A stretch of 64,000 nt of DNA from a bacterium HR35 (GCA_002898235.1 BEIL01000003.1:2264-66263); one strand, 5' to 3'; numbered from the stretch's first letter, positions 9,959 to 60,825 are shown. Notes: generated from the sequence alone by a model not told the origin. Translations and numbers: made by a program.

Positions 9959-12900
9959 TTATATCAAATTTTCTTCTTCTAAATATCTTTTTCTAAATTC
10001 TTCGCCAATCAATGGTTTTTTGCCGATAATAACATTTTCGTTTATACCTATTAATCTATCTTCTCTACATTCTAAGGCAGCTCTTACTAAAGCCCGCGAT
10101 GTTTCTTGAAAAGAAGCAGCTGAAAGAAAACTATAAGGAGTAGAAGCTACTTTTTTAATGCCCATAAGAAGCAAAACAGCTTTAGCTGGTTTAAGTCCGT
10201 TTTTTATAATTTCTCTATTCTTTTCAATGAATAAATCTTTTTCAATAATCTCGCCAATGACAAACTCGCTATCACCTGGATCAATCACTTTTACTCGAGA
10301 AAACATTTTTCTAATAACTAATTCAATATACTTCTCGTGAATATCAGCTCCTTGATTACTATAAACACTTCTAACTTCGTTTAAGATATACTTGAAAGTT
10401 TCCATTTTTCCCTTAGTTAAGTAGATTGCCTTTGGATCAATTATTCCTTCATTTAAGATATCGCCTTTATTAACTATCTGTCCTTTTTTGACGAAAAGCC
10501 TAAATTTTGATGGAATCTTAATGCTAACTTCTTTATTTTTTCTTGTTCTAATTTTAATAAGCCAATAACGAGGAAATTCTCTGATTTCTGAAATTTTTCC
10601 CTTAACCGGCGAAAGAACTGCTTCATTTTTAGGAGTAGAGACTTCAAAAAGCTGTTTCACTCGAGGCAAATCTTGGGTAATATCTTTAGCCGAAATAACT
10701 CCTCCAGCATGAAAAGACCTCAAAACAAATTGAGTTAATCTTTCACCAATAGAATGAGTAGCAATTAAACCAACGGCTTCTCCTAGTTTTACTGGTTGAT
10801 GGGTGCTTAAATCTAAGCCATAACACTTTTGACAAACACCATAAAGGGTTTTACAAGTAAAAACAGATCTAACTTTGGCTTCTTTAATAGAACTATCTTT
10901 ATCAATCAATCTTGAAAGTTTATAGGTAATAAATTCACCAGCTCTAACTAAAATTTGTCCTTGACTATTTTTAATATCCTCTAAGGCAACTCGAGAAAAA
11001 AGAGCATCGCCAAAACTTACTCCTCGTCTTTGAGCTTCTTCTCTAGTAATTACGATTCCTTCTTTGGTTCCACAATCAATTTCTCTTACTATCACATCGT
11101 GAAGGGCTGAAGCTAAAATTCTAGTCAAATAACCAGAATGAGGAGTTTTTAAAGCTTTATCAGCAACTCCCTTTCGGGCTCCATGGGTTGAACTGAAATA
11201 TTCAAGCGGTGATAAGCCCTTAAGATATGGACTAGCAATAGGTAAATGAACTGGCTCATTAGTTGGTGTTCTAACAACACCCTTAAAAGCTACCATTTGA
11301 ATAAGCTGATCATAACTACCTCGAGCGCCAGCATCAATTAAAAGTCGAGCATTATTAGTTAAAGGAACATTTTTCTTAATATATTCTTCGGCTTTAACCT
11401 TAGCTTTAACCCAAACTTCTTGAAGTTTTAAATTTTTTTCCTCTTTATTTAAAAGACCGTTGTTATAAGCTTCTAAGATTTTTTTATGTTCTTCAAGAGC
11501 TTCGTTTAAAATTTCTTCGATTTGAGAAGGTACAGTTAAATCGCTAATACTTAAAGTGATACCTCCATGAGTAGCATATTTAAATCCTAAAGTTTTAAGT
11601 TCATCTAAAATTATAGCTAATCTTTCAATTCCGTATTTATCTAAAATTTCCAAAAGAAGAGGAATAATTGATTTTCTATTAATGACTTCATTAATAAAAG
11701 GAAAGTCACTGGGTAAGACGCGGTTAAAAATTATTCTTCCTACTGTTGTCTCTATTTTTTCTTCATTTTTAACTTTCTTAACTTTGATTTTAGCCTGAAG
11801 GTCAATTAAATTATTTTCATAAGCTAAAATGGCGTCATTTTCATCAGCAAAATATTTTCCTTCACCTTTGAGTCCATCAACCATCAAAGTTAAGTAATAA
11901 ATTCCAGCAATCATATCTTTATCTGGTCGAGCTTCAATCATTCCTGTTCCTGGTCTTAAAACATTATAAAGAGCATTCATTAATTCTCGAGCTTCTCTTT
12001 GAGCTTCTGAAGATAAAGGTAAGAAGCAACCCATTTGATCACCATCAAAATCGGCATTAAAACCAGAACAAACAAGAGGTGGAATTCTAATAGCTAAACC
12101 TTCAACTAAAATAGGCTGAAAAGCTAAAAAGCTTAATTTATGAAGGGTTGGTGGTCGATTTAAAAGGATATATCTATTTTTAATAACTACTTCCAGAGCT
12201 GAGAGAGCTTCTGGATCCATTCTTTCGATTAGATAGTTAGCTTTTTTAGTTGTTTGGACAACTCCTCTTTTTAAAAGTTCATGAATAATAAAGGGTTTAA
12301 AAATTTCTAAAGCCATCTTTTTGGGTAAACCACATTCATTAACTCTTAAAGTTGGATCAACTACAATCACCGATCTGCCAGAATAATCAACTCTTTTACC
12401 TAAAAGGTTTTGTCTAAATCTTCCTTCCTTACCCTTAAGAAAATCGCCTAAAGATTTTAAAACTTTTCTTTGACCAATAACTATCTTTTCTTTCTTAAGA
12501 GAAATGTCAATCAAAGCATCAACAGCCTCCTGAAGCATTCTTTTTTCATTCTTTAAAATAATTTCGGGAGATTTCATTTCTAAAAGCCTCTTAAGGCGAT
12601 TATTTCGATTGATGATTCGGCGGTAAAGATCGTTTAAATCCGAAGAAGCAATTTTTCCTCCTTGAAGTTGAACAACTGGACGAATATCTGGAGGCACAAC
12701 TGGTAAAATTGTCAAAATCATCCATTCTGGTCGACGATTATATTTAATAAAAGCATTGATAAATTTAAGCTTTAAGGAAAGAATTTTCTTTTCTTGAGGG
12801 TCTGCTTTAGCTAACTTTTTAATTGTTTCCTCCCTTAGTTTTTCTAAATCTATTTCTTCTAAAAATCGGCGAATAGGTTCAGCTCCCATATCAACCTCAA

Positions 12901-13531
12901 AAACTCCAGGATATTTTTTAGAAAAATAAAAATATTCAGAATCAGAAAGAACCTTTTTAACCTGAAGAGAATTTAATTCTTCTTTAATTTGCTTATAAAT
13001 CTCGGTTTTTTGCCTCTTTTCTTCTCTACTTTCAGCTTTGGCTAAAAATTCTTTATATTCTTTTTCAATTTCTTCTAAGATTTCCTTCTTTTTAGTTTCA
13101 TTTACTTGAGTAATAATATAAGCAGAATAATAAATAACTCTTTCTAAATCTCTCAAAGGAATGTCCAAAAACAACTTTAAAGGATAAGGATAAACTTTTA
13201 GATACCAGATATGTGCTACTGGACTCATTAAAGTAATATGACCCATTCTTTCTTTTCTTACTGAAGATGAGGTTACTTCGACATCACATCTTTCACAAAC
13301 AATTCCTTTAACTTGAGGCTTTTTATACTTTCCACAAGCACATTCATAATCTTTAATTGGACCGAAAATAACTTCAGAAAAAAGACCATAACGATCAGGC
13401 TTGCCAGTTCGATAATTAATTGTTTCTGGCTTTAAAACCTCTCCGTGACTCCAGCTTAAAATCTCTTCAGGAGAGGCAATCTTTAAAACTAATTTTTCTA
13501 TTTCTGAAGTTGGTTTTTTAATAAGACTCAT
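9959..13531 (-). CDS. rpoC: DNA-directed RNA polymerase subunit beta'.
   Basis: Zn-binding CxxC clusters, the NADFDGDQM catalytic motif, 1190 aa; ATGA overlap with rpoB. Confidence 0.95.
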   Translation of the reverse strand: MSLIKKPTSEIEKLVLKIASPEEILSWSHGEVLKPETINYRTGKPDRYGLFSEVIFGPIKDYECACGKYKKPQVKGIVCERCDVEVTSSSVRKERMGHITLMSPVAHIWYLKVYPYPLKLFLDIPLRDLERVIYYSAYIITQVNETKKKEILEEIEKEYKEFLAKAESREEKRQKTEIYKQIKEELNSLQVKKVLSDSEYFYFSKKYPGVFEVDMGAEPIRRFLEEIDLEKLREETIKKLAKADPQEKKILSLKLKFINAFIKYNRRPEWMILTILPVVPPDIRPVVQLQGGKIASSDLNDLYRRIINRNNRLKRLLEMKSPEIILKNEKRMLQEAVDALIDISLKKEKIVIGQRKVLKSLGDFLKGKEGRFRQNLLGKRVDYSGRSVIVVDPTLRVNECGLPKKMALEIFKPFIIHELLKRGVVQTTKKANYLIERMDPEALSALEVVIKNRYILLNRPPTLHKLSFLAFQPILVEGLAIRIPPLVCSGFNADFDGDQMGCFLPLSSEAQREARELMNALYNVLRPGTGMIEARPDKDMIAGIYYLTLMVDGLKGEGKYFADENDAILAYENNLIDLQAKIKVKKVKNEEKIETTVGRIIFNRVLPSDFPFINEVINRKSIIPLLLEILDKYGIERLAIILDELKTLGFKYATHGGITLSISDLTVPSQIEEILNEALEEHKKILEAYNNGLLNKEEKNLKLQEVWVKAKVKAEEYIKKNVPLTNNARLLIDAGARGSYDQLIQMVAFKGVVRTPTNEPVHLPIASPYLKGLSPLEYFSSTHGARKGVADKALKTPHSGYLTRILASALHDVIVREIDCGTKEGIVITREEAQRRGVSFGDALFSRVALEDIKNSQGQILVRAGEFITYKLSRLIDKDSSIKEAKVRSVFTCKTLYGVCQKCYGLDLSTHQPVKLGEAVGLIATHSIGERLTQFVLRSFHAGGVISAKDITQDLPRVKQLFEVSTPKNEAVLSPVKGKISEIREFPRYWLIKIRTRKNKEVSIKIPSKFRLFVKKGQIVNKGDILNEGIIDPKAIYLTKGKMETFKYILNEVRSVYSNQGADIHEKYIELVIRKMFSRVKVIDPGDSEFVIGEIIEKDLFIEKNREIIKNGLKPAKAVLLLMGIKKVASTPYSFLSAASFQETSRALVRAALECREDRLIGINENVIIGKKPLIGEEFRKRYLEEENLI

Positions 13532-16500
13532 GATTGTTTAACTTCTCCGCCTTGGGGTTCTGTTTTTTTGACCTCCAATTGAGAAGGAACTGGTTGAATT
13601 TTTTCTGGTTTTTCTCGGTAATGAATTTCAATATTAAGGCCAAGACCTCTAAGCTCGTTAATCAACACAAGGAAAATATTAGGAAAAGAAGAGTAATTAA
13701 TATCCTCTCCCTTAATAATACTTTCATAAGCTACCATTCTTCCCTTAACATCATCTGATTTAATAGTTAAAATTTCGTGTAAATTTTCAGTTGCTCCATG
13801 AGCTTCAATTGCCCACATCTCCATTTCTCCAATTCGTTGCCCACCAAATCGAGCCTTACCTCCTAATGGTTGTTGAGTAATTAAAGAATAAGGACCAACT
13901 GAGCGAGCATGAATTTTATCTTCAACCATATGGACTAACTTCATCACTGTCATATAACCAACTAAAACTTTTTGAGGGAATTTTTCACCAGTTAAACCAT
14001 CATAAACATTGACTTTACCATCATCTGGTAAACCAGCTTTTTTAAGTTCTTGAGCTATTTCTTCTAGGGTTAAATTAGCAAAAGGGGAAACAATAGCGTA
14101 ATAACCATTAGCTTTAGCAGCTGCTCCTAAAAGGGTTTCTAAGATTTGACCTAAGTTCATTCGGGAAATTACTCCTACAGGATTAAAAATTATGTCTAAT
14201 CGTCTACCATCAGCTAAAAAGGGCATATCTTCTTCTTTAGCAATTAAAGAAATTACTCCTTTATTTCCATGTCGATTAGCTAGCTTATCTCCTATTTGAA
14301 TTTTTCGAAGTTTAGCTATTTTTACAAAAACCCTTTTAATTACTCCTGGTTCAGAAATCTCACCCTTAGCTCTCTCTAAAATCCTTATGCCAATCACTCT
14401 TCCTTCTTTACCTGGTTCAAGATAAAGAGAGGTATCTTTAACATCGCTTACCTTTTCACCAAAAATGCTCCTTAAAAGTTTTTCTTCAGGTGTTAAAGTT
14501 TCTGTTTTCTTAGGAGTAATTTTACCAACTAAAATATCACCAGCTTTGACATAGGTTCCAATTCTTACTATTCCATCAACATCAAGATTAGCTAATTTTT
14601 CTGGAGGAACACCTGGGATATCATTAGTAGTAATTTCTCTTCCCAATTTAGTATCAACAACATCAACAAAAAATTCTTCAATATAAATAGAAGAGAAAAA
14701 GTCTTCTTTTAAAAGCCTTTCGGAAATAATAATAGCATCTTCAAAGTTATAACCATACCAAGGCAAAAAGCCAACAAGTAAATTTTGACCAAGAGCTAAA
14801 TAACCGTCTTTAATTCCCGGACCATCAGTTAAAATATCTCCTTTTTTAACTTTTTCTCCTAATTTAACCCTTGGTTTTTGATTGTAACAAGTATATTTTG
14901 AAGTCATTTCGAATTTCTTTAATTGATAAACAACTTTTTTGCCTTTATCAGTTTCAATAGTAATATGGTCGGCATCAACTTCAATTACTTTTCCATCTAC
15001 TTCGGAAACTAAAACTCTTCCTGATTCTTCAGCTGCTTTTGCTTCTAAACCAGTCATTACCAAAGGAATTTCTGGTTTAATTAAAGGCACAGCTTGTTTT
15101 TGCATATTTGTTCCCATTTGAAGTCTATTAGCATCATCATGATTACCAAAGGGTATTAAAGAAGTAGAAAGAGAAAAGGCTTGAAATGGACTAACATCAA
15201 TTAAAGTAACTTCCTCTTTTCTGACTAAAACAGCTTCTCCATTAAATCGTGCTTCAACTATTTCGTCTAAGATATTTCCTCGAGAATCAATTCTTACATT
15301 TCTTGAAGCGATAATTTCATCTTTTTCCTGATCATAAGTTAGCCAGACAAGTTCATCGGTTACTTTTCCGTTTTTTACTCTCAAATAAGGAGTTTCCAAA
15401 AACCCAAATTCATTTCGGCGAGCATACAAAGCTTTGCTTAATTTTATTCCTACAGATTGACCTTCATGAGGAGTATGGATAGGACAAATTCTTCCATAAT
15501 GAGAAGGATGGACATCTCTTACTTCTAAACTAGCTCTTTCTTTACTTACTCCACCAGGACCAGCTGCGGTAATTACTCTTTTATTTTCTATCTCTGAAAG
15601 CGGTGAAGTTTGGTCTAAAATTTGCGAGAGTCTTGAAGTGTTAAAAAATTCTAAAATGGTATTTGAAAATCTTCGAGGATGAATTATTTGGGAAAGAGCT
15701 ATTTCTTCGGTTTTGCTTACTGAACTCATTTTATCTTGAATGTCTCGGCGCAATCGAGAAAGAGCAATTCGAACTTGATTTTCTAAAAGCTCTCCCAAGT
15801 CTCTTATTCTTCGATTGTAAAGAGCGTCAACATCGTCTTTGGTAGCTAAGGGGTCATGTTGAAGTCTTAAAATTTCTTTAACTATTTCTAAAATATCTTC
15901 TTTTTCTAAAACTAAGGAGTTGGAGTTTCGTTTGAGTCTTCTATTTAGATGGAATCTACCAACTCGAGAAAGATTATATCTTTGAGGATTTAAAAAGGTT
16001 GATTCAAAATAAAAAACAGCATTATCATAGGTGTTTGGTTCAATTGGCTTCATTTTTCGATGAATTTCTAAAAGAGCCTCTTCTCTATTTTCAGTTTTAT
16101 CTCTCTTTAAAGTTAAAGTAACAATTGGAAATTCTTCGCTTTCAGAATTTTTTAAAGCTTCAAAAATTTCTTCATTAGTTTCAAAACCAAAAGCTTTTAA
16201 AATAACTGAAAAGGGAAATTTTTTTCTTCTATCAACTCTTACTTGTAAGATGTTAGTTGCTTCTACTTGAAACTCAAGCCAGGCACCTTGATGAGGAATA
16301 ACTTTAGCTCCAAAATTTCTTCTTTCTCCATACAAAACAAAATCAAAATATACTCCGGGGGATCTTAAAAGTTGATTAACAATTACCCTTTCATGTCCGT
16401 TAATAATAAATGAACCTCGAGAAGTAATTATTGGTAAATCGCCAAAATATATTTTCTGAATTTTTTCTTCTTTAGTTACTAAGTTTGTAAGTTTTAAAGT

Positions 16501-16884: not shown

Positions 16885-16969
16885 CGGAGGGGGTGGGACT
16901 CGAACCCACAAGGCCACAAGGGCCACCGGTTTTCAAGACCGGCGCATTAGCCAATTCTGCCACCCCTCC
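16885..16969 (-). tRNA. tRNA-Ser (anticodon TGA), type II with a long variable arm.
   Basis: Manual cloverleaf: acceptor ggagggg/cccctcc, anticodon stem ccggt/accgg with loop cttgaaa, long variable arm. Confidence 0.75.
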
Positions 16970-16970
16970 A

Positions 16971-17042
16971 TGCCCCCAACCGGATTCGAACCGGTATTTC
17001 CAGCTTGAGAAGCTGGTGTCCTAACCATTAGACGATGGGGGC
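16971..17042 (-). tRNA. tRNA-Glu (anticodon CTC).
   Basis: Manual cloverleaf: acceptor gccccca/tgggggc, anticodon loop ttctcaa, T-loop ttcgaat. Confidence 0.7.
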
Positions 17043-17043
17043 T

Positions 17044-17126
17044 TGGGCAGGGAGGGATTCGAACCCTCACGGCTAAAAGCCACAAGGTCCTAAACCTTGC
17101 GCGTCTGCCAATTCCGCCACCTGCCC
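17044..17126 (-). tRNA. tRNA-Leu (anticodon TAG), type II.
   Basis: Manual cloverleaf: acceptor gggcagg/cctgccc, anticodon loop tttagga, long variable arm, T-loop ttcgaat. Confidence 0.75.
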
Positions 17127-24471: not shown

Positions 24472-25536
24472 ATGAGTCAAACAATGGTTACTGAACAAAA
24501 TCAAGGATTAAAAGTGAAAGTTAAGAATATAACAATAGGTAGTATTTTGGAGGGAGTTGTTATCAGTAAGAAAAAGGGTGAGCTTTTTGTTGATTTGAGT
24601 CCTTTTGGAACAGGAAGGCTTTATGGGATTTTTTTCAAAGAGTGTGAGGATTTAGCAAAAAAAGTAAATGTTGGTGATAAAGTTGGAGTAAAGGTTGTTG
24701 GTTTAAATGATGGTTATGGAAATTTAGAAATTGTTCTTCAAGATACTTTTCAAATTAATCGCTGGCAAAAGATTTTGGAATATCAAAGAAATAAAACAGT
24801 TTTGGAATTGGAAATTAAAGAAGCTAATCGAGGTGGTTGGATTATTGAGCTTGAAGGCATTCAGGGTTTCATTCCTGTTTCTCAACTTTCGCCTGAATAT
24901 TATCCTCGAGTAAGTAATAATGATAAAGAGGCTATTTTAGAACATCTTAAAAAATTTGTTGGTCAAAAAATTAAATGCGTTGTTTGGTTAGCTGATCCTC
25001 AAAAAAACAAGTTAGTTCTTTCAGAAAAATTAACAAAAGCTGAAATTTATCAAAAGGTTTTAGAAAGTCTTCAGGTTGGTCAAATTTTAGATGTTAAAGT
25101 TGTTGGTATCAGTTCCTTTGGTGTTTTTGTTAGGTTTCATACTAACCCTGATATGGATGGTTTAATTCATATTATGGAAATTCCTCCAGAGTTAGCAAAT
25201 GACCTTCAAAAAAATTTTCCTTTAGGCAAAATCTTAAAAGCAAAAATTATTCAAATAAAACAAGATAGAGTTAATTTTTCTCTTAAAGATTTGAGGCCTG
25301 ATCCTTGGTTAATGGTTAAAGAATTTTATCGTGAAGGCTCTCAAGTCCAGGGGCTGGTTAAGGAAAAAAATAATATCTTTGGTGTAGCTGAAATTTCAGT
25401 AGGAGAGTATGGAAGTATTCAGGGTTATGTTTTTGAAGGAGTAGAAAAATTGGAGGTTAATAAGAGCTATAATTTTTTAATCGAAACTTTAAATCCCAAA
25501 GAAAAACATCTTGTTTTAAAACCGATTGATGCTTAG
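24472..25536 (+). CDS. rpsA: S1 RNA-binding-domain protein (short ribosomal protein S1 homologue, about 4 S1 repeats).
   Basis: Repeated G-x-V-x-G-x-V-(x)n-G-V/A-F-V S1 motifs (GSILEGVVISKKKGELFVDL, GQILDVKVVGISSFGVFVRF, and others). Confidence 0.6.
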   Translation: MSQTMVTEQNQGLKVKVKNITIGSILEGVVISKKKGELFVDLSPFGTGRLYGIFFKECEDLAKKVNVGDKVGVKVVGLNDGYGNLEIVLQDTFQINRWQKILEYQRNKTVLELEIKEANRGGWIIELEGIQGFIPVSQLSPEYYPRVSNNDKEAILEHLKKFVGQKIKCVVWLADPQKNKLVLSEKLTKAEIYQKVLESLQVGQILDVKVVGISSFGVFVRFHTNPDMDGLIHIMEIPPELANDLQKNFPLGKILKAKIIQIKQDRVNFSLKDLRPDPWLMVKEFYREGSQVQGLVKEKNNIFGVAEISVGEYGSIQGYVFEGVEKLEVNKSYNFLIETLNPKEKHLVLKPIDA

Positions 25537-28500
25537 AAATAATTATCTTAAATACTTTATTTTAGTTTTCTCTTTAATTCTTTTTTTCTCAATTTTATTT
25601 GTTGGTGAGAAAAAAATCAAAGAAGAGCAAAGCGTTTCTTTTCCTGTATTTTTAGAAAAGGTAAAAAATGGCGAAGTTAAAGAAATTAACTTAGAAAACG
25701 AAACTAATTTTACTTTTATTACTCAAGACAATAAAGTTTTTAATTCGAATAAGGATCCTAATGTTAGCTTTTGGGAAGTCTTCGAAAAAGAAAAAATACC
25801 TAAAGAAGTTTATCTGAAGATTAAAATTACTAAAAAAACAGAAGCTTCTTGGCTTCAACTTTTTCTTTCTTTTCTAATTAATGTTATTCCAATAATAATT
25901 ATTACTTGGTTTATTTGGCAGATTTTCAGACAGACGCAAAGAGGTACAAGTCAAATTTTTTCTTTTGGCAAATCAGGAATTAAAGTTTATAATCCCAATG
26001 ATCCAAATCGAATAACTTTTAAAGATGTAGCTGGCCTTGAAGAAGCTAAACAAGAACTTATGGAAGTTGTTGAATTTTTAAAAAATCCTGAAAAGTTTTT
26101 CAAAATTGGAGCTCGAATTCCTAAAGGAGTATTACTAGTGGGGCCGCCTGGAACCGGGAAAACAATGTTGGCTCAAGCAACAGCCTCGGAGGCTGGTGTT
26201 CCTTTCTTTTATATTTCTGGTTCTGAGTTTGTTGAAATGTTTGTCGGTGTTGGTGCTTCAGTAACTGGAGACACACCGATATTAATAAAAAGAGGAAACA
26301 AAATTAAGTTAACAACTATCGGTAAGTTTGTTGATAAATTTTATCAAGAAAATGAAAGTGGTTTTGTTAAATTTATAGACGGTTATGAAACTTTAGGTTA
26401 TGAACCACAAAGAAAAGTTTATTTTGGCAAGCCAATCTGGACAAATATTCGTGGCGTTTTTAGACATAAAGTCAATGAGATTTATGAAATTTATTTTAGA
26501 GGGGGGAAAATAAAAACAACTGGAGATCATAGCGTTTTTGTCAGAGAAAAAAATAGAATTATTCCTAAAAAAGTAAGTGAATTAAAAGTTGGTGATTGTT
26601 TAGTAAATTTACCATTTAAACGAAGAAGTGTTTTTGTTAAAGGAATAGGCACAACTCATAAGATTTCAACTTTTGATCTTGAAGAAAAAGAGATTTATTT
26701 AGATTTATATGAGAAAGAGTATAATAAAGCTTTGTTTAGTTACCAGTTTGCTTTAGAAAATAGAAATATTTTGAGTCAAGCGAAAATAGGAAAAATTTTA
26801 GGATTAGCGCAGACTACAATTAAAGATTGGCAATTAGGAAGGAGAAGGCCGAAAATATTTTCGAGCTTTAATATCTTTAGATTTAAAATCCCGCCTAAAA
26901 TAAAAGTGGATTTAGATTTGATGAAACTTCTTGGCTATTATGTTGCTGAAGGGAGAACAACAGATTATTTCACTCAATTTGTTTTTGGGATTCATGAAAG
27001 AGATTTGATTAAAGATTGTTCAAATTTAATTGAAAAGATTTTTAACATAACACCCCATATCAAAGATTGTCCTGAAACTAACTCCTGTCGAATTACTATT
27101 TACTCATCAATTATTAGCAAATTTTTTAAAAAGCACTGTGGTACTGGGGCCAAGAAAAAGCATATTCCTCCTTTCTTGTGGCAAATTCCCTTTCCTTATT
27201 TCAAATCATTTTTAGAAGGTCTTTACAGGGGTGATGGTTACATTACAAAAGAAGGAAAGTTAATTATTACCACAACTTCAAGAAGGTTAGCTTTAGAGCT
27301 TATTTGGCTTTCGGCTCTCCATGGAATTCAAGTTGGACTAAGAAAAACAAAATCGCCTGAAAGAAAAATAAGAGAGAAAATTCTTAAGCCATCTAAATAT
27401 TACCTAGTAATTTTTGGAAAGACATCTAATCCTTTTCTTAAAAATAAAAAGACTTCTCAACCTAAAAAACCAATAATAACAAAAATAATTAAAAAACCCT
27501 ATGATGGTTATGTTTATGACCTTTGTGGTTGTGATAATGAAGCATTTTTTGGAGGAGAAAAACCTATTTTACTTCATAACAGTCGCGTCCGTGATGCATT
27601 TTCTGTTGCTAAAAGAAATCAACCTTGTTTAACAGGTGATACAATTATTACTTTAAGCAATGGAGAAGAAATTACTATTAAAGAGATTTATGAGAAAAAA
27701 TTGATTGGCAAAGAGGTTTTAGCTTTTGATGAAAATCTTAATCTTAAAACCGCAAAAATAATTGGTGTTAGCAAAACACCCGATCAAGAAATATTAAAAA
27801 TATCTACAATCATCGACACCATAAAATTAACTCCCGATCATCTTTTACCTACTTTGAAAGATGGCAGGTTAGAATGGGTAGAAGCCAAAGAACTAAAAGA
27901 GGGAGATTTCATAGCTTATCCAAAGAAAATTCCTGAAGAATTTAGGATTCAATCAATAAGAACTCTAACTTTGATTCCTGAAGAAACAAGAATTTACTTC
28001 AAAAACAATTGTCTGCCTAAAATATATGGAAATAAAAAGTATTATCATTCAGTTAAATTAAAAGAAATATATTTAGATAAAATTGACGAAGAAAACATTG
28101 CTTGGATTGCTTTAGGCAAAGGTGGTTTTACTGATTCTTATCTCTACAGAATACCAAAATATTTGAATGAAGATATTCTTTATCTTAAAGGCTTAATAGA
28201 TGGTGATGGTTCTTATCATAAAAACAAATTCAATATTACTTTTGTTAATACTGAGTTGTATCTTCACCAAGAAGTTAAAAAGATTGTTTTAGATAATTTT
28301 GGAATTTCTGCGAAGACTTATAAAAACAAAAAATATTATCGCAATCTTCCTCAAGGGAAACCACCTCAAAATCTTAAAGATTGTTATACCACTCATATTA
28401 ATAACAAGTTAGTTAAAATCATCCTGAAAAACATTGATGAGATTCTTCTTTCTTTACCAAACAATCTTATAGCTGCTTGGATAAGGGGCATTTTTGATAG

Positions 28501-30151
28501 TGATGGTTATGTAGCCAGTATCAAAAATCATCCCAAGATTGTAATTACTTCTACTGACGAAACGTTGAACAAAAAAATTAGATCTGCTTTATTAAGATTA
28601 GGAATAATTGGCTATTGCACTGCTTCTAATAATTTTGGTAATATTGAAATTACAGGAAAGGAAAATATTAAACGTTTTAGAGAAATAGTTGGCTCTAATC
28701 ATCCTAAGAAATTGCAGAGATTAAAAAATTTAAATTTAGAAGGAGTAAGATTTTGGCGCTTAAATCAGATTCCATTAGGTTTGTTGCTTAAAGAAGCTAG
28801 GATTTCTTTAGGGATAGGGCAAAGGAGTTTTAAAAATGGGCATATGATTTCTTGTTGGGAAAGAAATATTCATTTACCATCTTTAGAGAATTTGGAAATA
28901 AAAGTTAAAGAAATGGAGAAAATAATTAGTGAAAAAAATTTATCTCCAACTCAAAGCTTTGAAAAATTAAAATCATTTGTCTACGGTGATGTAAGTTGGG
29001 TAAAAATTAAAAAAATTGAAAAAGTAAATCAAAAAGAAGACGTTTATGATCTTATTTTAGATAAATATCATAATTTCATTGCTAATAATCATTTTGTTCA
29101 TAATTGCATTTTGTTCATTGATGAGCTTGACGCTATTGGAAAAATAAGAGGAGCGGGAATTACTGGCGCTCATGAAGAAAGAGAGCAAACATTAAATCAA
29201 ATTTTAGTTGAAATGGATGGTTTTGAAAAAGGAACAAAAGTCGTTGTTTTAGCGGCGACAAATAGACCTGATGTTCTTGATCCAGCTCTTCTTCGTCCAG
29301 GAAGATTTGACCGCAAAATTGTTTTGGATTTGCCTGATATTAAAGCTAGAGAGGAAATTTTAAAAATTCATTTAAGAGATAAAAGAGTTGGTAAAGTTAA
29401 TTTAAGGCAAGTAGCTGAAAGAACTCCTGGTTTTTCTGGAGCTGATTTAGCTAATTTATGTAATGAAGCTGCAATTTTAGCAGCCAGAAGAAACAAAGAA
29501 TTTATCACTCAACAAGAACTTTTAGATTCAATTGAAAAAGTTTTATTAGGTCCAGAAAGAAAAACAAAAGCCTATTCAAAAAAAGAAAAAGAAATTGCTG
29601 CTTATCATGAAGCTGGCCATGCCATTGTTGCTCATTATTTGCCTTATACTAATCCAGTTCAAAAAATTTCAATTATTTCTCGCGGTCGAGCAGGTGGTTA
29701 TACTTTAAAAACACCCCTTGAAGACAGAAGCTTTTATTTTAAGAAAGAATTTTTAGATGAATTGGCTTCAATGCTTGGTGGTTATGCTGCTGAAAAATTA
29801 ATTTTTAACGATATTACTACTGGAGCCAGTAATGATTTAGAAATTGCTACTGATTTAACTAGACAATTAGTAACTAAATTTGGAATGTCAGAAAAACTTG
29901 GTCCAATTTCAATCTCCCAAAAACCAAAAGAATTTGTTTTAGAAAAAGAGTACTCTGAAAAAACAGCTGAACTTATCGATGAAGAAGTAAAAAATATTAT
30001 TCACCAAGCATTAGAAAGAGCAACAAAGGTTTTAGAAATTAAAAAAGATAAATTAGAAAAAGTTGCTCAAGTTTTAATCAAAAAAGAAGTGATTGAGAAA
30101 AAACAATTTGAGAGATTAGTTGGCGAGAAAAAAGGAAGTTTAAATATTTAA
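25526..30151 (+). CDS. ftsH: ATP-dependent zinc metalloprotease FtsH, interrupted by two in-frame inteins; the mature extein is about 607 aa.
   Basis: Walker A GPPGTGKT, the FVEMFVGVGA | SRVRD | CILFIDELDA extein blocks, the HEAGHA zinc site and an N-terminal TM anchor; a 1541-aa ORF. Confidence 0.9.
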   Translation: MMLRNNYLKYFILVFSLILFFSILFVGEKKIKEEQSVSFPVFLEKVKNGEVKEINLENETNFTFITQDNKVFNSNKDPNVSFWEVFEKEKIPKEVYLKIKITKKTEASWLQLFLSFLINVIPIIIITWFIWQIFRQTQRGTSQIFSFGKSGIKVYNPNDPNRITFKDVAGLEEAKQELMEVVEFLKNPEKFFKIGARIPKGVLLVGPPGTGKTMLAQATASEAGVPFFYISGSEFVEMFVGVGASVTGDTPILIKRGNKIKLTTIGKFVDKFYQENESGFVKFIDGYETLGYEPQRKVYFGKPIWTNIRGVFRHKVNEIYEIYFRGGKIKTTGDHSVFVREKNRIIPKKVSELKVGDCLVNLPFKRRSVFVKGIGTTHKISTFDLEEKEIYLDLYEKEYNKALFSYQFALENRNILSQAKIGKILGLAQTTIKDWQLGRRRPKIFSSFNIFRFKIPPKIKVDLDLMKLLGYYVAEGRTTDYFTQFVFGIHERDLIKDCSNLIEKIFNITPHIKDCPETNSCRITIYSSIISKFFKKHCGTGAKKKHIPPFLWQIPFPYFKSFLEGLYRGDGYITKEGKLIITTTSRRLALELIWLSALHGIQVGLRKTKSPERKIREKILKPSKYYLVIFGKTSNPFLKNKKTSQPKKPIITKIIKKPYDGYVYDLCGCDNEAFFGGEKPILLHNSRVRDAFSVAKRNQPCLTGDTIITLSNGEEITIKEIYEKKLIGKEVLAFDENLNLKTAKIIGVSKTPDQEILKISTIIDTIKLTPDHLLPTLKDGRLEWVEAKELKEGDFIAYPKKIPEEFRIQSIRTLTLIPEETRIYFKNNCLPKIYGNKKYYHSVKLKEIYLDKIDEENIAWIALGKGGFTDSYLYRIPKYLNEDILYLKGLIDGDGSYHKNKFNITFVNTELYLHQEVKKIVLDNFGISAKTYKNKKYYRNLPQGKPPQNLKDCYTTHINNKLVKIILKNIDEILLSLPNNLIAAWIRGIFDSDGYVASIKNHPKIVITSTDETLNKKIRSALLRLGIIGYCTASNNFGNIEITGKENIKRFREIVGSNHPKKLQRLKNLNLEGVRFWRLNQIPLGLLLKEARISLGIGQRSFKNGHMISCWERNIHLPSLENLEIKVKEMEKIISEKNLSPTQSFEKLKSFVYGDVSWVKIKKIEKVNQKEDVYDLILDKYHNFIANNHFVHNCILFIDELDAIGKIRGAGITGAHEEREQTLNQILVEMDGFEKGTKVVVLAATNRPDVLDPALLRPGRFDRKIVLDLPDIKAREEILKIHLRDKRVGKVNLRQVAERTPGFSGADLANLCNEAAILAARRNKEFITQQELLDSIEKVLLGPERKTKAYSKKEKEIAAYHEAGHAIVAHYLPYTNPVQKISIISRGRAGGYTLKTPLEDRSFYFKKEFLDELASMLGGYAAEKLIFNDITTGASNDLEIATDLTRQLVTKFGMSEKLGPISISQKPKEFVLEKEYSEKTAELIDEEVKNIIHQALERATKVLEIKKDKLEKVAQVLIKKEVIEKKQFERLVGEKKGSLNI
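26258..27580 (+). mobile_element. Intein 1 in FtsH (441 aa; Ser1 ... His-Asn, +1 Ser) with a LAGLIDADG-type homing-endonuclease domain.
   Basis: Starts with SVTGDTPIL (block A with Ser as the nucleophile) and ends ILLHN|SRVRD. LAGLIDADG-like motifs are LLGYYVAEGRT and LEGLYRGDGYI. It is inserted between FtsH GVGA and SRVRD. Confidence 0.75.
27626..29104 (+). mobile_element. Intein 2 in FtsH (493 aa; Cys1 ... His-Asn, +1 Cys) with a LAGLIDADG homing-endonuclease domain.
   Basis: Starts with CLTGDTIITL (classic block A) and ends FVHN|CILFIDELDA. LAGLIDADG motifs are LKGLIDGDGSY and WIRGIFDSDGYV. It is inserted immediately before the Walker B region. Confidence 0.8.
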
Positions 30152-30155
30152 AAAA

Positions 30156-31256
30156 TTAAGGACCAAGATTTAGACAAACATATCTAATTGGGCCAGTAGT
30201 TGAACAAGTGCTACCAAAAGAACATTTTTCCGTACCGCTTACTCCTCCAGGATCATAAGCTTTAACACAAATCTCTTTTGCTCCTGTTGTATAATTTCCA
30301 TTTATTACCCTACTATTTAAATCAATTGAAGCTATTTTTCCGCTTACATACATATCTCCATTAACATATAGTCTAAATGGATCTGGATTTGTTATTCCGA
30401 TGCCTATGTTACCATTATTTCCTTTAACTGTAAAAACTTCGCTGCCACGGTCATTAGTTACTCTAAATCTTGAATCTTGACCGGTATCTATTCTAATGGT
30501 GGTAATTGCATTCCAATCCCCTACTTCTTCATTGCCAATTATAAATTCATTTGTATCTACATAAATGTATTTATTAAAAGCATCTAAGAAATTTATCTTT
30601 TTTCCGGAATTACCAGAAAAACACAACATATACGGATCATAATTACAATAATAAATATCATCGCCTATTCCTATAGTTCCTATTACTTGTAATTTCTTCT
30701 GAGGGTTCATTGTTCCAATGCCAATATTTCCATTATTTAAAATTGTCATTAAATGCTTTACATCATCGCCTCCAGGTGGATCTGGATCATTAACAAATGA
30801 TGTTTTTCCATAAGAAGGAGCAGTATTTGTAATCCAAAATAATCCATCATATCCACCATCAAACCACATATCTCTTGAAAAATCACCAAATCCTATTTTC
30901 CCAACTGCTTCATTATCGCTAACAATTTCAAATTTTGTTCGCGGATAAAGAGTTCCTACTCCAACATTGCCTCCGTAAGGATTAAGAGATAAATTATATG
31001 GTTTGCCGGTTTCATCTTTGCTCTGAATAATACCATAGTCAGCGTAATTTGATAATAATTTATTATCCTCAGAAATTGGTTCGTTAGGAGTAAGATAGAT
31101 ATTTTGATTTAATTTAAGATTATCATCTGACGATATTTTTGTTCTTTTGCCTATAAAGTAATTTTTAAAGGAATCAAAAGAAGGTCTATTAAAATAATAA
31201 AAATAAACGAAAATAAAAATAAGCCCTCCTAAAAAAATCAAATATTCTTTTTTCAT
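30156..31256 (-). CDS. Secreted repeat protein (tail-fibre-like G-N-V/I-G-I-G-T-x-x-P repeats), putative adhesin.
   Basis: N-terminal anchor MKKEYLIFLGGLIFIFVYFYYF; repeats GNVGVGTLYPRTKFEI, GNIGIGTMNPQKKLQV, GNIGIGITNPDPFRLYV; a Cys-rich C-terminus. Confidence 0.5.
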   Translation of the reverse strand: MKKEYLIFLGGLIFIFVYFYYFNRPSFDSFKNYFIGKRTKISSDDNLKLNQNIYLTPNEPISEDNKLLSNYADYGIIQSKDETGKPYNLSLNPYGGNVGVGTLYPRTKFEIVSDNEAVGKIGFGDFSRDMWFDGGYDGLFWITNTAPSYGKTSFVNDPDPPGGDDVKHLMTILNNGNIGIGTMNPQKKLQVIGTIGIGDDIYYCNYDPYMLCFSGNSGKKINFLDAFNKYIYVDTNEFIIGNEEVGDWNAITTIRIDTGQDSRFRVTNDRGSEVFTVKGNNGNIGIGITNPDPFRLYVNGDMYVSGKIASIDLNSRVINGNYTTGAKEICVKAYDPGGVSGTEKCSFGSTCSTTGPIRYVCLNLGP

Positions 31257-31291
31257 CTTAAAAGTATTATAATTATAACTCTATGTTACTT

Positions 31292-32614
31292 CTAGTACAA
31301 ATCTGGCCAGCAAATCCCTAAATTTGTTGAAGGAATAACTTGTCTAGAAATTCCGGGTCCGCTCCATTCAAGAAGCAATCTCTCACCACCTGCATTCTCA
31401 TAATGGTCTATTCTTAATGGATACCAACCGGGAGAAGAAAAGGTATAATTAGCAGAATACGTGGTAGCGCCTTGATCTCTCCATTGATCCACTAAGATTT
31501 GCCAGTTAACCCACAACCTAACACCATCATCGCTAGTTACATAAAAAGTATAGGTTCCTGCAACTGGTATATAAACACAACCATAAACTCTAAGCGACCA
31601 ACCATCAGCTTTTCCAAGGGGATTAAGATCAGTAAAATCTATAGTTGGTTTTACTATTCTCATAATTTTATCTTTAAACGAAAGATATGGATTTGGATCA
31701 TAGCTCCCAAAACCTTCAACAATAATTCCTCCTTTTTGCACTATTCTTCTCGGAGGCCATCCTGGAGAATCTAAAAAAACAGCATCAACTAAATTTCCTT
31801 CATAAATTGTTAATTTAGTAGTCGGTGTCGTCGTCCCGATGCCGATATTATTATTAACATCGATTACTATTGCAGGATTATTAAAATTTCTCGTAAAATC
31901 ACGTGCTATTTTGAATTTGTCTCCATCGGCGTTATCTATTCCCATTATCCAATCTCTTACTCCTGGAATAGCAAAATGAAGCATAGGATTAGCGGTTGCT
32001 CCGCCCCAAGCAGTAGAAATAGCTATTCTAACATCAGCCGAAGGTCCAGTATTATCGTTCCTTATTAAAAGTTGCAATTCTGAGTTAGAATTTGAAGCTA
32101 TATGAACTTTTTGTTCTGGTGTCGTCGTCCCGATGCCGACGTTGCCAGGAAAACTATAATTTCCTCCACCTGTGTTTGCTCCAAATTGGCCTGAAGAAAC
32201 ATTAGCTGCATTGATTGTTCCTAAAAAAGTATCAGCTTTAACATTACCAGCAACATGTAAAGTTGTTGTAGGTGTTGTTGTTCCAATTCCTAATCTTTTG
32301 TTTGTATTGTCCCAAAAGAGATTGTTGTCACCAGAAATAGTTGATGCTCCTGTCCAAAATGCTACTTGACCAGCTGAACCCGAGCCGCCTATTCCTAAGC
32401 TACCAGTATATCTTACTAAAACATTTTGGGTTGAGGAGGTCATTACTAAATAACCAGCTCCAGGCCAAGTTGTTTCTCCCCAATTAAGATAAGGTAATGG
32501 CTGGCAGTAAGCACCTTGTCCTAAAGATTCTTTGGGTAAAAAAAAGTAAAAAATAATGTTGGTTAAAGCAAATAAAAGCGAAAGAGCAAGAGATATTATT
32601 AACCCCTTTTTCAT
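31292..32614 (-). CDS. Secreted repeat protein with three IGIGTTTP repeats and a C-terminal PA14 domain; putative carbohydrate-binding adhesin.
   Basis: Repeat 1 is LGIGTTTPTTTLHVAG, repeat 2 is NVGIGTTTPEQKVHIA and repeat 3 is NIGIGTTTPTTKLTIYEG. A C-terminal YTFYVTSDDGVRLWVNWQ...YPLRIDHYENAGGERLLLEW is PA14-like. Confidence 0.55.
   Translation of the reverse strand: MKKGLIISLALSLLFALTNIIFYFFLPKESLGQGAYCQPLPYLNWGETTWPGAGYLVMTSSTQNVLVRYTGSLGIGGSGSAGQVAFWTGASTISGDNNLFWDNTNKRLGIGTTTPTTTLHVAGNVKADTFLGTINAANVSSGQFGANTGGGNYSFPGNVGIGTTTPEQKVHIASNSNSELQLLIRNDNTGPSADVRIAISTAWGGATANPMLHFAIPGVRDWIMGIDNADGDKFKIARDFTRNFNNPAIVIDVNNNIGIGTTTPTTKLTIYEGNLVDAVFLDSPGWPPRRIVQKGGIIVEGFGSYDPNPYLSFKDKIMRIVKPTIDFTDLNPLGKADGWSLRVYGCVYIPVAGTYTFYVTSDDGVRLWVNWQILVDQWRDQGATTYSANYTFSSPGWYPLRIDHYENAGGERLLLEWSGPGISRQVIPSTNLGICWPDLY
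31824..31845. repeat. 22-nt direct repeat ggtgtcgtcgtcccgatgccga (copy 1); copy 2 at 32118..32139 in the same frame encodes G-I-G-T-T-T-P.
   Basis: Exact 22/22 nt identity 294 bp (98 codons) apart inside CDS 31292..32614. Confidence 0.8.
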
Positions 32615-33078
32615 TTTGTTATTATTATATAACCTAACAATTTATTTTTGCAATTGTTACAAATAATTTTAAAGCTACCTTCTTCTAAAGCTTGAAATTG
32701 AATTGTTTTTGTTTCTTCCTTTTTTATTTTGCTAGAAAGATTATAATTTTCTATAAAAATTTCGTAATTTTTATCTTTAGCTGTTAAATTTAAAGTAAGT
32801 ACATCATTTAAAGAAGCTTTTATCGTGTTTTTTTCTCCTAGACTTTCGTTTTCTAAATCTAAATTAAAATTTTGATAATTTGTTTCATTTATTTTAACGC
32901 TGCTTGATGGTTGAACGATTTTAGTTTCTTCTACTTTGATTGTTTCTTTAGAAGAAGTTTTAACTTTTTGAGGTAATTTAAAAGAAATTATAGAAAAAAT
33001 ATCAAAGTAAAAAACAAGTACAAAAATTAAAACAACAATTATGATTCCAACTAAAAAAATTAAATATTCTCTTTTCAT
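32611..33078 (-). CDS. Hypothetical signal-anchored protein.
   Basis: The N-terminus MKREYLIFLVGIIIVVLIFVLVFYF is closely related to that of the 30156..31256 protein (MKKEYLIFLGGLIF...). Confidence 0.35.
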   Translation of the reverse strand: MKREYLIFLVGIIIVVLIFVLVFYFDIFSIISFKLPQKVKTSSKETIKVEETKIVQPSSSVKINETNYQNFNLDLENESLGEKNTIKASLNDVLTLNLTAKDKNYEIFIENYNLSSKIKKEETKTIQFQALEEGSFKIICNNCKNKLLGYIIITK

Positions 33079-33896: not shown

Positions 33897-35168
33897 TTAA
33901 TAATTGACAATTACTCTATAATAATCTTTATCTTCTTCTTGCCTGTAATTTAAATTCAACAACTCTTTTCGAAAATCTTCTAATTTTTCTTTGGGAACTT
34001 TAAAAATTGCCTCCCGTCTATCAAAATCATAACTTTCTAAAGAATATTTTTCGGAGAGAAACAAAACTTTTAAATAATTTTCATTTTTTTTATTTTCAAT
34101 TTTTTGAACAATTTCCAAAAGATAATCTAAACTATTTTGGATTTCCCTTAAATTACCTCTTAAAGGATGTTTAGCTAAATTTTCTTTTATTTCTTTTTCT
34201 GATCGGGAAAGTTTTGAATAATAAAAGCCAAAAACTAAAATAGCAATCAGAGAAACGACTATCAAAAAAATAGAAGCTACCAAAATAGGCCTTCTTATTT
34301 TAGTGAAAAAATAGACATTTTTAGGTTTGAGATTAAGAAAATCAAGGAAGGGTTGATCTTGAAAAATTTTCCTTAAAAGAACAACTCCGCCTTTAGCTAT
34401 AAATTCATAAGGATTAATTAAAATTGTTTGAAGATTGGAGAGGGCTGTTTCTTTAAAAGAAAAAATTAGGATTTCAAATTTTTTGTTTAAACTTTGAAAA
34501 TAGCCGATATATCTTTGAAAAAAAATTTCAAAATTAGTATTTTCGCTAATTTCTTCTAGAAATAAACTTTCTAACTTTAAATTTTCTAAATACAGGATAT
34601 GAGTAAGTTTTTCGTCAATAAAAAAAACTAAATAATTTTCGCTAAAAGTAATTTTTGCTTCATAAATTAAATTACTTAAAATGGCTTCAACAGAAGGAGC
34701 AATAAAATAAATTGTTAAATTTTCTTTAAAAAGAACCTCTAAAATAGCTTCTTCAATTTCTCTAGGGAAGAAAAAAATATCAAAATTAGCTAAATTACCG
34801 CTAAGTTTGTAAATATCTTCTTTAAAAATAAATTTATATCTTTCCAAAGGCAGAGGAAGATTGACCTGGAGATAATTTTTGATAGCTGAAGCTGGATCTG
34901 TTGTTCGGGGTATAGTAATTCTTTGAAAAAAAATATTAGGTAAATGAAGAATAATTCCTAATTCGTTTAATTTATATTTAGTTAGAAGCTCTTTTAATGC
35001 TTTTTCAAAGTTTTCTTTAAAAAAAACACCATTACTATAAATTTCTCCTTTCAAAATTTCCAATCTTTTAAGTTTAATTTCATTGTCTTTTTCTTCAAGA
35101 TCATAGTAAATTAACCTATCTGAAGAAATAAGAAGAATATCTATAATTTCTTCTTTGAATATTTTCAT
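33897..35168 (-). CDS. Hypothetical bitopic membrane protein (cytoplasmic domain of about 285 aa, one TM, extracytoplasmic tail of about 120 aa).
   Basis: TM helix ILVASIFLIVVSLIAILVFGFYY; no catalytic motif recognised; ATGA overlap with the downstream solute-binding gene. Confidence 0.3.
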   Translation of the reverse strand: MKIFKEEIIDILLISSDRLIYYDLEEKDNEIKLKRLEILKGEIYSNGVFFKENFEKALKELLTKYKLNELGIILHLPNIFFQRITIPRTTDPASAIKNYLQVNLPLPLERYKFIFKEDIYKLSGNLANFDIFFFPREIEEAILEVLFKENLTIYFIAPSVEAILSNLIYEAKITFSENYLVFFIDEKLTHILYLENLKLESLFLEEISENTNFEIFFQRYIGYFQSLNKKFEILIFSFKETALSNLQTILINPYEFIAKGGVVLLRKIFQDQPFLDFLNLKPKNVYFFTKIRRPILVASIFLIVVSLIAILVFGFYYSKLSRSEKEIKENLAKHPLRGNLREIQNSLDYLLEIVQKIENKKNENYLKVLFLSEKYSLESYDFDRREAIFKVPKEKLEDFRKELLNLNYRQEEDKDYYRVIVNY

Positions 35169-56152: not shown

Positions 56153-56226
56153 TGGGGGGTGGTGTAATGGTAGCACAAGGGACTTTGGATCCCTTGGTCC
56201 TGGTTCGAATCCAGGCCCCCCAGCCA
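56153..56226 (+). tRNA. tRNA-Gln (anticodon TTG), with CCA encoded.
   Basis: Manual cloverleaf: acceptor tgggggg/cccccca (U1-A72 as in E. coli tRNA-Gln), anticodon loop ctttgga, T-loop ttcgaat, then gCCA. Confidence 0.75.
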
Positions 56227-60659: not shown

Positions 60660-60731
60660 GCGGCGGTAGTTCAGCGGCAGAACGCCGGCTTGCCATGCCG
60701 GAGGTCGCGGGTTCAAATCCCGTCCGCCGCT
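60660..60731 (+). tRNA. tRNA-Gly (anticodon GCC).
   Basis: Manual cloverleaf: acceptor gcggcgg/ccgccgc, anticodon stem ccggc/gccgg with loop ttgccat. Confidence 0.75.
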
Positions 60732-60747
60732 CAAACTTTTAAATAAA

Positions 60748-60819: not shown

Positions 60820-60825
60820 ATTTTC

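Follow-up and report, generated by a model that had tools for sequence, protein, structure and literature searches.

The analysis reported here concerns two adjacent genes, in the following called A and B, which lie on the minus strand of a 64,000-nt stretch of DNA from bacterium HR35 (GCA_002898235.1, BEIL01000003.1:2264-66263; this entire stretch is referred to as the window). With a probability of roughly 0.7, A and B are modular surface-fibre adhesins resembling the mosaic adhesive trimers (MATs) of Bdellovibrio and the Peptidase_S74 (S74) fibres of phages, and their locus recombines at the repeats which encode a recurring peptide motif. Judged from their sequences, both proteins appear to be short members of a tail-fibre-like modular fibre superfamily, of the same kind as MATs and phage S74 fibres.

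According to this explanation, A and B would be exported and either be held in the membrane or be freed by cleavage at a conserved SLG/QG site, and they would trimerise into short stalks. A would then display three PA14 lectin domains which bind glycan on a partner cell, while the small Cys-rich domain of B would serve as an exchangeable tip. The DNA of the motif, a repeat of 22-30 nt, would be a homology patch at which recombination adds, deletes and swaps cassettes and tips. Homologous recombination at these patches would alter the length of the stalk as well as the specificity of the tip, which would make this chromosomal locus a fast-evolving adhesin locus. Surface display, glycan binding and a role in host-cell attachment are what we infer for the two proteins. 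An earlier reading of the window (in the following the sequence-only reading) had already proposed a function in cell-cell attachment, which would fit with the domain content and with the analogy to the MAT fibres of Bdellovibrio. A and B may form trimers, as indirectly suggested by the S74 trimerisation chaperones which occur in sister paralogues.

Architecture of the two proteins

At its C-terminus, A carries a true PA14 domain. It is matched by the Pfam family PF07691 with 60.1 bits against a cut-off of 24 (E 2.7e-16) over positions 8-146 of the 147 profile positions, and its best sequence match in the PDB (phmmer) is the PA14 domain of RsgI3 (6qe7, E 1e-26). The AlphaFold model reaches a predicted local distance difference test (pLDDT) score of >90 over aa 340-430. 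A Foldseek comparison places this model on 6qe7_B with a root-mean-square deviation of 1.9 A over 143 columns and also finds MpPA14, Flo, Epa and anthrax PA. Residues S361-D362-D363-G364 of A align to the DDG of the PA14 domains of RsgI3, RemA and Lap, an agreement which refers to residue presence only. In lectin-type PA14 domains, the Asp-Asp(-Gly) loop takes part in Ca2+/carbohydrate binding. It is most likely, as far as such similarities indicate function, that the PA14 tip of A binds glycan on a partner cell or surface.

The part of A which precedes this tip is related to fibres of solved structure. It matched the crystal chain of Bdellovibrio Bd2133 (8ond) with an E of 5.7e-4 as a single sequence and of 1.1e-7 as a family profile, and the profile also matched 8ojn (3.7e-4) and 8oml (0.012). 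The alignment to Bd2133 spans aa 220-270 of A. In MATs, a signal peptide and a conserved base domain are followed by an intertwined trimeric beta-helix stalk and a variable tip, which is either a Peptidase_S74 chaperone or a binding domain, and a conserved capping-loop motif sits at the edges of their beta-helix domains (Caulton et al., 2024; PMC10769870). Modules of this type, bordered by the capping-loop motif (V-G-x-G/N-small-x-x-P-x-x-x-L), are present in A and B with three copies of the motif in each. The copies of A start at aa 106 (KRLGIGTTTP), aa 157 (GNVGIGTTTP) and aa 255 (NNIGIGTTTP), and beyond these three and the three of B no copy of GN[VI]GIGTxxP was found in any frame of the 64-kb window. 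In Bd2133, the copies GNLGLGTAAP, GLVGINTAAP and GNVGIGATAP are 70-115 residues apart and align with the motif of A and B. Because of this spacing and alignment, the inter-motif stretches, of 98 aa in A and of 70 and 96 aa in B, are best read as single putative stalk modules. In addition, tail-fibre families of PHROG matched aa 81-138 of A weakly. Relatives which share the N-terminus of A carry PA14, Cys-rich, Peptidase_S74, DUF2341, Kelch, H_lectin, Gly_rich or delta-60 tips, and one paralogue with an S74 tip (P0010) matches the long tail fibre of phage S16 (6f45). Literature searches on the peptide motif and on tail-fibre-like adhesins of the candidate phyla radiation (CPR) yielded nothing relevant.

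Both proteins contain a single hydrophobic segment, located at the N-terminus. The Kyte-Doolittle maximum is 2.31 for A and 1.77 for B, in both cases at aa 4-22, and the modelled helices comprise aa 3-25 and aa 3-22, respectively. The hydrophobic region is long in A and B (~21 aa, from hydropathy and modelled helices). The SLG/QG junction which follows in A is conserved across its orthologues and paralogues. Further downstream, the constant region (aa 33-72) is characteristic of a small CPR subfamily: in a search of all representatives, only members of this subfamily matched from query residue 1, at protein residues 29-33. The repeat units of aa 73-156, which include an AT-spelled copy of the motif (32270-32299), were in turn matched by 10,275 cluster representatives at E<=1e-3 and occur in up to 49 copies in giant proteins of 3,000-7,000 aa. 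By these matches, A is a minimal member of a very large family, and what sets the small CPR subfamily apart is confined to aa 33-72. An assignment of aa 33-156 as a MAT-like base domain was considered and dropped, since aa 73-156 are generic repeat units. Cassette d, which lies between the two boundary motifs of A, has a GC content at third codon positions (GC3) of 0.19 and carries a different tip in a relative (P0007/L123).

No family of Pfam or NCBIfam matches B, and NCBIfam returned nothing for A, B or two paralogues. The anchor of B differs from that of A, and B lacks the constant region. The Cys-rich tip of B (75 aa) is known from three close lineages only. It is a mobile module, as it is also present on the A-type fibres P0007 and P0039. 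A copy of B with 98% identity exists in the close relative L530 (P0121). A BLASTP alignment of A and B is limited to motifs of 16-24 residues with a best E of 0.003; the N-termini, cassettes and tips of the two proteins are unrelated, and they are linked by their motif architecture and by the natural chimeras P0007 and P0039. The sequence-only reading had called the two proteins paralogous, which goes too far. Its other structural statements have been borne out, that is, the two open reading frames (ORFs), an N-terminal anchor or signal in the form of one hydrophobic helix each, the multiple motif copies and the PA14 end of A. The tail-fibre-like, beta-helical nature which it had assumed is now supported by the homology to 8ond, 8ojn and 8oml, the weak PHROG matches and the S74 paralogues. 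The exact 22-nt direct repeat which it had noticed is present at 31824-31845 and 32118-32139, 294 nt apart. The 16-nt core of this repeat occurs in the window at those two sites only, even if three mismatches are allowed, with 0.01 occurrences being expected by chance.

Exchange of cassettes and tips among relatives

Orthologous fibre genes at the syntenic locus, all of them from metagenome assemblies, contain 0, 1, 2 or 3 cassettes. The alleles compared are those of L001 (582 aa; cassettes a, b and c), L002 (341 aa; no cassette), L003 (478 aa; a and c) and L531 (445 aa; b). L001 and L002 are 100% identical in their flanks (8,000 + 8,000 nt). All seven mismatches between the two are inside the 1-kb gene and none is in the 16 kb of flanks, for which the chance would be ~3e-9 if mismatches were evenly spread. 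Every junction in these four alleles is within an exact 29-30-nt repeat, GGCAACGTCGGCATCGGGACGACGAATCC, which codes for GNVGIGTTNP. A length of 22-30 nt is about the minimum for a RecA-type exchange. The short allele of L002 exhibits its own substitutions at the junction (AGTCCAGCG vs AATCCCACG) and in the PA14 part and is therefore not a collapsed version of L001. The segments of L531 differ from L001 by 0.8%, 4% and 8.6%, and this uneven divergence points to a mosaic. Cassette b (L001 8715-8993) has a GC content of 0.53 and a GC3 of 0.58 in a genome of 27% GC, and it thus appears to have been imported recently from a much GC-richer donor. The GC-rich spelling of the motif flanks this cassette. 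A homologue search with cassette b returned nothing, and a local tblastn of the cassettes against 489 fetched loci revealed none that is shared with other phyla. The differences between the alleles are indels of whole cassettes and swaps of tips, not point changes; targets of diversity-generating retroelements are marked by adenine-specific point variation in a C-terminal variable repeat, with a template repeat and a reverse transcriptase nearby.

Two close relatives of HR35, L123 and L530, were included in the comparison. L123 (83% DNA identity to the window) is colinear with the window from 33626 to 31828 and then jumps to 30404, from where it continues to 30099. This is a fusion of both genes, in which the N-terminus of A and cassette d are joined to the tip of B by a crossover within the motif. 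It lacks 1.42 kb, namely PA14 and the first 281 residues of B. At the corresponding position of L125, another locus of the same synteny, the fibre carries a DUF2341 tip. In a metagenome scan, the similarity to A ended at aa 172, six residues past boundary motif 1, in at least five loci (L250, L252, L253, L259 and L260), or in eight with L254, L261 and L262 included, where gene products are shared between L254 and L253 and between L260 and L259. The sequence-only reading had predicted variation of the repeat number at 31824..32139. Variation as such is evident from the 0-3 cassettes, from the breakpoints in the motif repeat and from the A-B fusion, and the repeat number is not identical in all related genomes. 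The particular deletion of cassette d (31824..32139) was not seen among the close relatives L123 and L530. In L530, a strain with 97.6% identity, position 1 of the contig corresponds to position 32121 of the window, which lies within the GC-rich boundary motif 1. Assemblers therefore seem to break off at this repeat, possibly because several variants were present together in the sample.

DNA spelling of the motif and alternative explanations

The boundary motifs of A agree with GGCAACGTCGGCATCGGGACGACG (GGC AAC GTC GGC ATC GGG ACG ACG) at 24/24 and 19/24 positions. This stretch has a GC content of 71%, compared to a GC3 of 0.23 for gene A and of 0.19-0.22 for the flanking cassettes. Under the codon usage of the window the probability of the GC-rich boundary spelling is 1.1e-9, and GGG, ACG and GTC are rare codons in the HR35 genome. 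The identical 24-mer is found at the cassette boundaries of L001-L003 and of L124, whose genomes have 26-30% GC. The motif peptide at aa 106, that is, the constant-region copy, is AT-spelled in every lineage. An exact 20-base core pattern of the spelling was matched in at least 119 stretches of genomes and in at least 120 of viral contigs, and all of these matches were in frame. The genomic matches came from CPR, DPANN archaea, Omnitrophica, Elusimicrobia, Planctomycetes, Acidobacteria, Proteobacteria and Bdellovibrionales. Directly upstream of the core, GGC AAC was found in 118/146 cases and in 11/11 cases from loci of <40% GC. When records of cultured phages were searched with the 30-mer, all matches were partial and lay in genes annotated as 'chaperone of endosialidase' and 'tail fiber'. 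Another GC spelling, which would be likelier a priori, occurred in only 16 viral stretches. The use of the genomic matches (at least 119) as proof of a DNA-level conservation across phyla was downgraded after control spellings and lineage comparisons, as these attribute the raw match count to the abundance of the motif peptide itself.

One spelling recurred within the same locus in 24-39% of cases for GGCAACGTCGGCATCGGGACGACG, in 13-16% for the AT controls and in 2% for the other GC spelling. In our reading, copies of the motif DNA become homogenised within a gene, and at recombination junctions a single GC-rich spelling either persists or is seeded anew time and again. We infer that this spelling is maintained because of recombination. 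Its ultimate cause may be selection, biased gene conversion or import. A bolder version, in which the 24-30-nt spelling (GGCAACGTCGGCATCGGGACGACG...) would be a portable recombination adaptor, retained as DNA even where the genome has a GC content of 26-30%, is unlikely. The same low expectation applies to its corollary, according to which CPR, DPANN, other phyla and viruses have the spelling in common and cassettes and tips are exchanged across distant lineages.

It is possible, and somewhat more probable than such an adaptor, that the GC-rich spelling exists without any selection for recombination and results from GC-biased gene conversion at a hot spot of recombination, from the slow decay of an imported GC-rich ancestor or from a translational pause at rare codons which assists the folding of each module. 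In favour of this are the rarity of GGG, ACG and GTC in this genome, the abundance of AT spellings elsewhere, the intermediate spellings of sister lineages and the unexceptional synonymous change of the motifs (see the following paragraph). On the other hand, the flanking cassettes are fully AT-adapted while the motif has retained its 71% GC, the identical 24-mer occurs in four separate lineages, the within-locus re-use exceeds that of the controls, and in high-GC genomes the same spelling would give no pause.

Several observations weigh against the explanation of A and B as MAT-like adhesins at a recombining locus. The AlphaFold monomer models of the fibre parts of A and B were poor (pLDDT 40-70), and of these models only the PA14 domain and the N-terminal helices were usable. 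The beta-helix and the trimer are consequently not directly visible. At the N-termini of A and B, there may be either cleavage of a signal peptide or a permanent anchor. The comparative part depends on metagenome assemblies. With respect to the spelling, two AT-rich spellings of the motif peptide are as frequent in viral contigs as the GC-rich one (114 and at least 120 stretches), sister CPR lineages exhibit all stages from a GC-rich to an AT boundary spelling, and between the window and L123 the motifs do not show reduced synonymous change (3/13 codons, against 70/220 in the remainder of the gene).

Among the alternatives for the proteins themselves, the one with the highest probability, although still an improbable one, is that they are surface fibres which do not serve contact with a host cell. 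PA14 would then tether the cell to environmental polysaccharide or a biofilm or would capture substrate, and B would be a component of the envelope. PA14 domains are indeed also found in biofilm adhesins (MpIBP, Lap), glycosidases and sensors, besides cell-cell adhesins. The quick turnover of cassettes and tips between otherwise identical strains is, however, the pattern expected in an arms race with a living partner, which is indirect evidence for attachment to such a partner. Far less probable is an origin of A and B as tail-fibre genes of a prophage or its remnant, with phage host-range evolution behind their variability. The weak PHROG matches of A, the frequency of the motif and its GC-rich spelling in viral contigs and the resemblance of the S74 paralogues to the phage S16 fibre are in line with this idea, but tail fibres do not possess N-terminal signal or anchor segments such as those of A and B. 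Furthermore, the housekeeping neighbourhood is conserved, with a 4-nt overlap of fibre gene and cupredoxin-like gene in every lineage examined and without flanking phage genes. Equally doubtful is that the differences in cassette number are assembly artefacts caused by short exact repeats. All relatives are short-read metagenome assemblies, and the L530 contig that ends exactly within the motif demonstrates that the repeat does disturb assembly. Yet the final k-mers exceed the repeats (22-30 nt) in length (the 'k141_...' names of L002 and L003 being read as k=141), the substitutions specific to L002 and the mosaic of L531 do not fit a collapse of L001, the 341-aa form is present on three contigs and listed by three sources, and the 478-aa architecture occurs in two independent assemblies. 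Least probable of all is that A is an RsgI-type anti-sigma-I factor which senses extracellular polysaccharide with PA14 and signals to a sigma factor. This idea arises from the NCBI entry which is 100% identical to A, 'Anti-sigma-I factor RsgI3 [bacterium HR35]' (P0001), and from 6qe7 of RsgI3 being the best PDB match of the PA14 part. That match is confined to the PA14 domain, and neither RsgI_N (PF12791) nor another cytoplasmic domain gave a Pfam match in A, even at E<=1. As the hydrophobic segment begins at residue 3, no cytoplasmic part is left for binding a sigma factor, and residues 73-270 are fibre repeats homologous to Bd2133. From its sequence, the name looks like a mis-transfer.

Genomic setting and comparison with known systems

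The coordinates of both genes and their parts are given in Table 1. A and B are the last genes of a co-directional, tightly packed row (63-aa ORF, M50 peptidase, cupredoxin-like, A, 35-nt gap, B) on the minus strand. The stop of B is 4 nt from the stop of the convergent ftsH (30151-30156), an interval which has no space for terminators. The GC content of the window is ~29%. NCBI leaves 'bacterium HR35' unclassified; close homologues of A carry the label Minisyncoccia, and the relatives with the same synteny have low-GC genomes of CPR/Patescibacteria type. The order SBP_bac_5, M50, cupredoxin-like, fibre and FtsH is conserved in at least five lineages, and the pair of cupredoxin-like and fibre gene is kept with its 4-nt overlap at every orthologous locus examined. 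In the window and the relatives examined, no phage structural, integrase or lysis genes flank the fibre locus, whose neighbours are housekeeping genes, and the A/B locus is not within a module of phage structural genes.

Table 1. Features of the A/B locus in the window (aa, amino acids; positions counted from the first letter of the window).
Feature	Position	Strand	Description	Basis or remark
Cupredoxin-like membrane protein gene	32611..33078	minus	Upstream of A	Stop overlaps A start by 4 nt
Gene A	31292..32614	minus	440-aa modular fibre protein with PA14 tip	ORF and Pfam
A aa 1-31	32522..32614	minus	N-terminal hydrophobic signal or membrane anchor (MKKGLIISLALSLLFALTNIIFYFFLPKESLG), then conserved GQGAYCQPLPYL	
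A aa 33-72	32399..32518	minus	Constant region, small CPR subfamily only	Common to paralogues with different tips
A aa 73-156	32147..32398	minus	Generic fibre repeat units (..VAFWTG..NNLFWDNTNKRLGIGTTTP..INAANVSSGQFG..)	
A boundary motif 1, aa 157-166	32117..32146	minus	GNVGIGTTTP, GC-rich spelling GGCAACGTCGGCATCGGGACGACGACACCA	Holds exact repeat 32118-32139
A cassette d, aa 167-254	31853..32116	minus	Interchangeable fibre module	Putative beta-helix domain, by homology
A boundary motif 2, aa 255-264	31823..31852	minus	NNIGIGTTTP	Holds exact repeat 31824-31845; crossover of the L123 A-B fusion
A neck, aa 265-303	31706..31822	minus	Last motif to PA14	Conserved in PA14-tipped orthologues; low-confidence model
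A PA14 lectin-type tip	31295..31705	minus	Pfam envelope aa 304-430, runs on to the C-terminus	Conserved SDDG loop
Gene B	30156..31256	minus	366 aa, own anchor, three motifs, Cys-rich tip	ORF
B anchor, aa 1-23	31188..31256	minus	N-terminal hydrophobic segment	Kyte-Doolittle and model
B motif 1, aa 96-105	30942..30971	minus	GNVGVGTLYP	Mostly AT-spelled
B motif 2, aa 176-185	30702..30731	minus	GNIGIGTMNP	
B motif 3, aa 282-291	30384..30413	minus	GNIGIGITNP	Second crossover partner in the L123 A-B fusion
B tip, aa 292-366	30159..30383	minus	Small domain, Cys at 330, 345, 351 and 361	

Promoter and terminator scans of the window gave results at or below the expectation from shuffled sequences. The only 'terminator' call coincides with the motif, read antisense to gene A (31821-31846, + strand), where the self-complementary motif DNA (CGTCG...CGACG) can form a 10-pair hairpin ahead of a T-rich run. 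The initial 28 nt of B (31229-31256) and of the cupredoxin-like gene (33051-33078, both minus strand) are identical at 26/28 positions, with protein starts of MKKEYLIFL and MKREYLIFL, which might reflect the duplication of a segment with start and anchor or simply an AT-rich coincidence. The ftsH gene (25526-30151, + strand) encodes 1,541 aa due to two inteins with LAGLIDADG homing-endonuclease domains (Pfam matches: Intein_splicing x2, LAGLIDADG_3, Hom_end). FtsH is intein-free (606 aa) in the relatives L001-L003 and intein-bearing in L125. In L125, small ORFs including ParE-toxin and PIN-domain genes are present between the fibre gene and ftsH (12331-15292). There the window has gene B, and this position behind the fibre gene is variable in its own right. 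A 423-aa ORF (33897-35168, minus strand) without a Pfam family adjoins the SBP_bac_5 gene in all relatives examined, and its syntenic counterparts (~426-430 aa) likewise have no Pfam family on record. An Rfam scan located tRNA genes in two clusters of three (16885-17126 and 60660-60898) and a single one at 56153-56223. In the full text of a paper on Cas12e orthologues, 'bacterium HR35' is mentioned once (PMC11685505).

MAT- and tail-fibre-like adhesins and PA14 lectins were known already as kinds of proteins. New are the occurrence in CPR-type bacteria of a minimal form with a PA14 tip at a conserved locus, the exchange of cassettes and tips caught between otherwise identical genomes with breakpoints at nucleotide level, and the uncommon way in which the junctions are spelled. 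The means by which ultra-small, host-dependent bacteria recognise their partners and attach to them are largely obscure, and work so far, judging from abstracts, has centred on type IV pili. The A/B locus offers a second concrete candidate, that is, a minimal tail-fibre-like adhesin with a recognisable lectin tip which is small enough to be expressed and crystallised. Natural alleles that differ only by defined cassettes, in genomes otherwise identical, make host-range determinants of CPR bacteria directly testable. From the breakpoints in the motif, the rebuilding of such fibres can be followed nucleotide by nucleotide. The peculiar GC-rich spelling leads to the approachable question of what constrains recombination junctions at the level of DNA, and a misleading database name is corrected.

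In the tail-fibre adhesins of T-even phages ('His boxes') and in pilin or Mycoplasma cassette systems, short conserved patches between variable adhesin segments are the points of crossover at which specificity is reshuffled. Different from these systems, no silent cassette store, invertase or dedicated recombinase was seen here, and the crossover patch is a capping-loop motif of the protein structure, spelled in an unusually GC-rich way for an AT-rich genome. Literature searches on His-box recombination yielded nothing relevant. The beta-barrel and the DDG loop of the PA14 tip are common to A and to known PA14 adhesins and sensors (MpIBP of Marinomonas, Pseudomonas/Lap-type RTX adhesins, Flo/Epa of yeast, RemA of Flavobacterium, RsgI3 of Clostridium), the closest matches by sequence and structure being 6qe7, 6qdi, 6m8m, 6x7j and 8gl6; with regard to ligand contacts, the comparison covers the DD pair only. 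Elsewhere, PA14 is combined with RTX repeats (Lap-type) or is part of a yeast wall protein or an anti-sigma factor, whereas in A it would be the tip of a tail-fibre-like stalk. Nothing relevant was found in literature searches on PA14 in CPR. Phage S74 fibres (K1F endosialidase, T5 pb1, S16 gp37) resemble the A family in their repeat motif and fibre modules, and sister paralogues of A end in S74. In contrast to these phage fibres, A and B have no S74 domain, possess a signal or anchor and are located in a chromosomal housekeeping context instead of a virion module.

The closest likeness is to the MATs of Bdellovibrio (Bd2133, Bd1334 and Bd3182; PDB 8ond, 8ojn and 8oml), in which an export signal (in A and B a putative signal or anchor) is likewise followed by modules bordered by capping loops and by an exchangeable C-terminal tip. 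Both families include paralogues with a common N-terminal part and different tips ('tip swapping'), and Bdellovibrio and HR35 can be likened to each other as small organisms living on other bacteria. With ~1,000 aa, MATs are far longer than A and B, which have ~400 aa and 1-3 modules. Their base domain is beta-rich and comprises ~130 aa; A has a constant region of its own subfamily (aa 33-72), followed by generic repeats, and B lacks this region. MATs are produced by a predator of the deltaproteobacterial type, A and B by a Gram-positive-type, ultra-small, CPR-like bacterium, to which the idea of the mosaic adhesive trimer would thus be extended as a very different lineage. No mention of a PA14 tip or of CPR was found in the MAT paper (PMC10769870) or its supplements. 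Whereas that paper infers the exchange of tips from paralogues, at the fibre locus studied here exchange is seen between near-identical strains, together with its breakpoints in the DNA.

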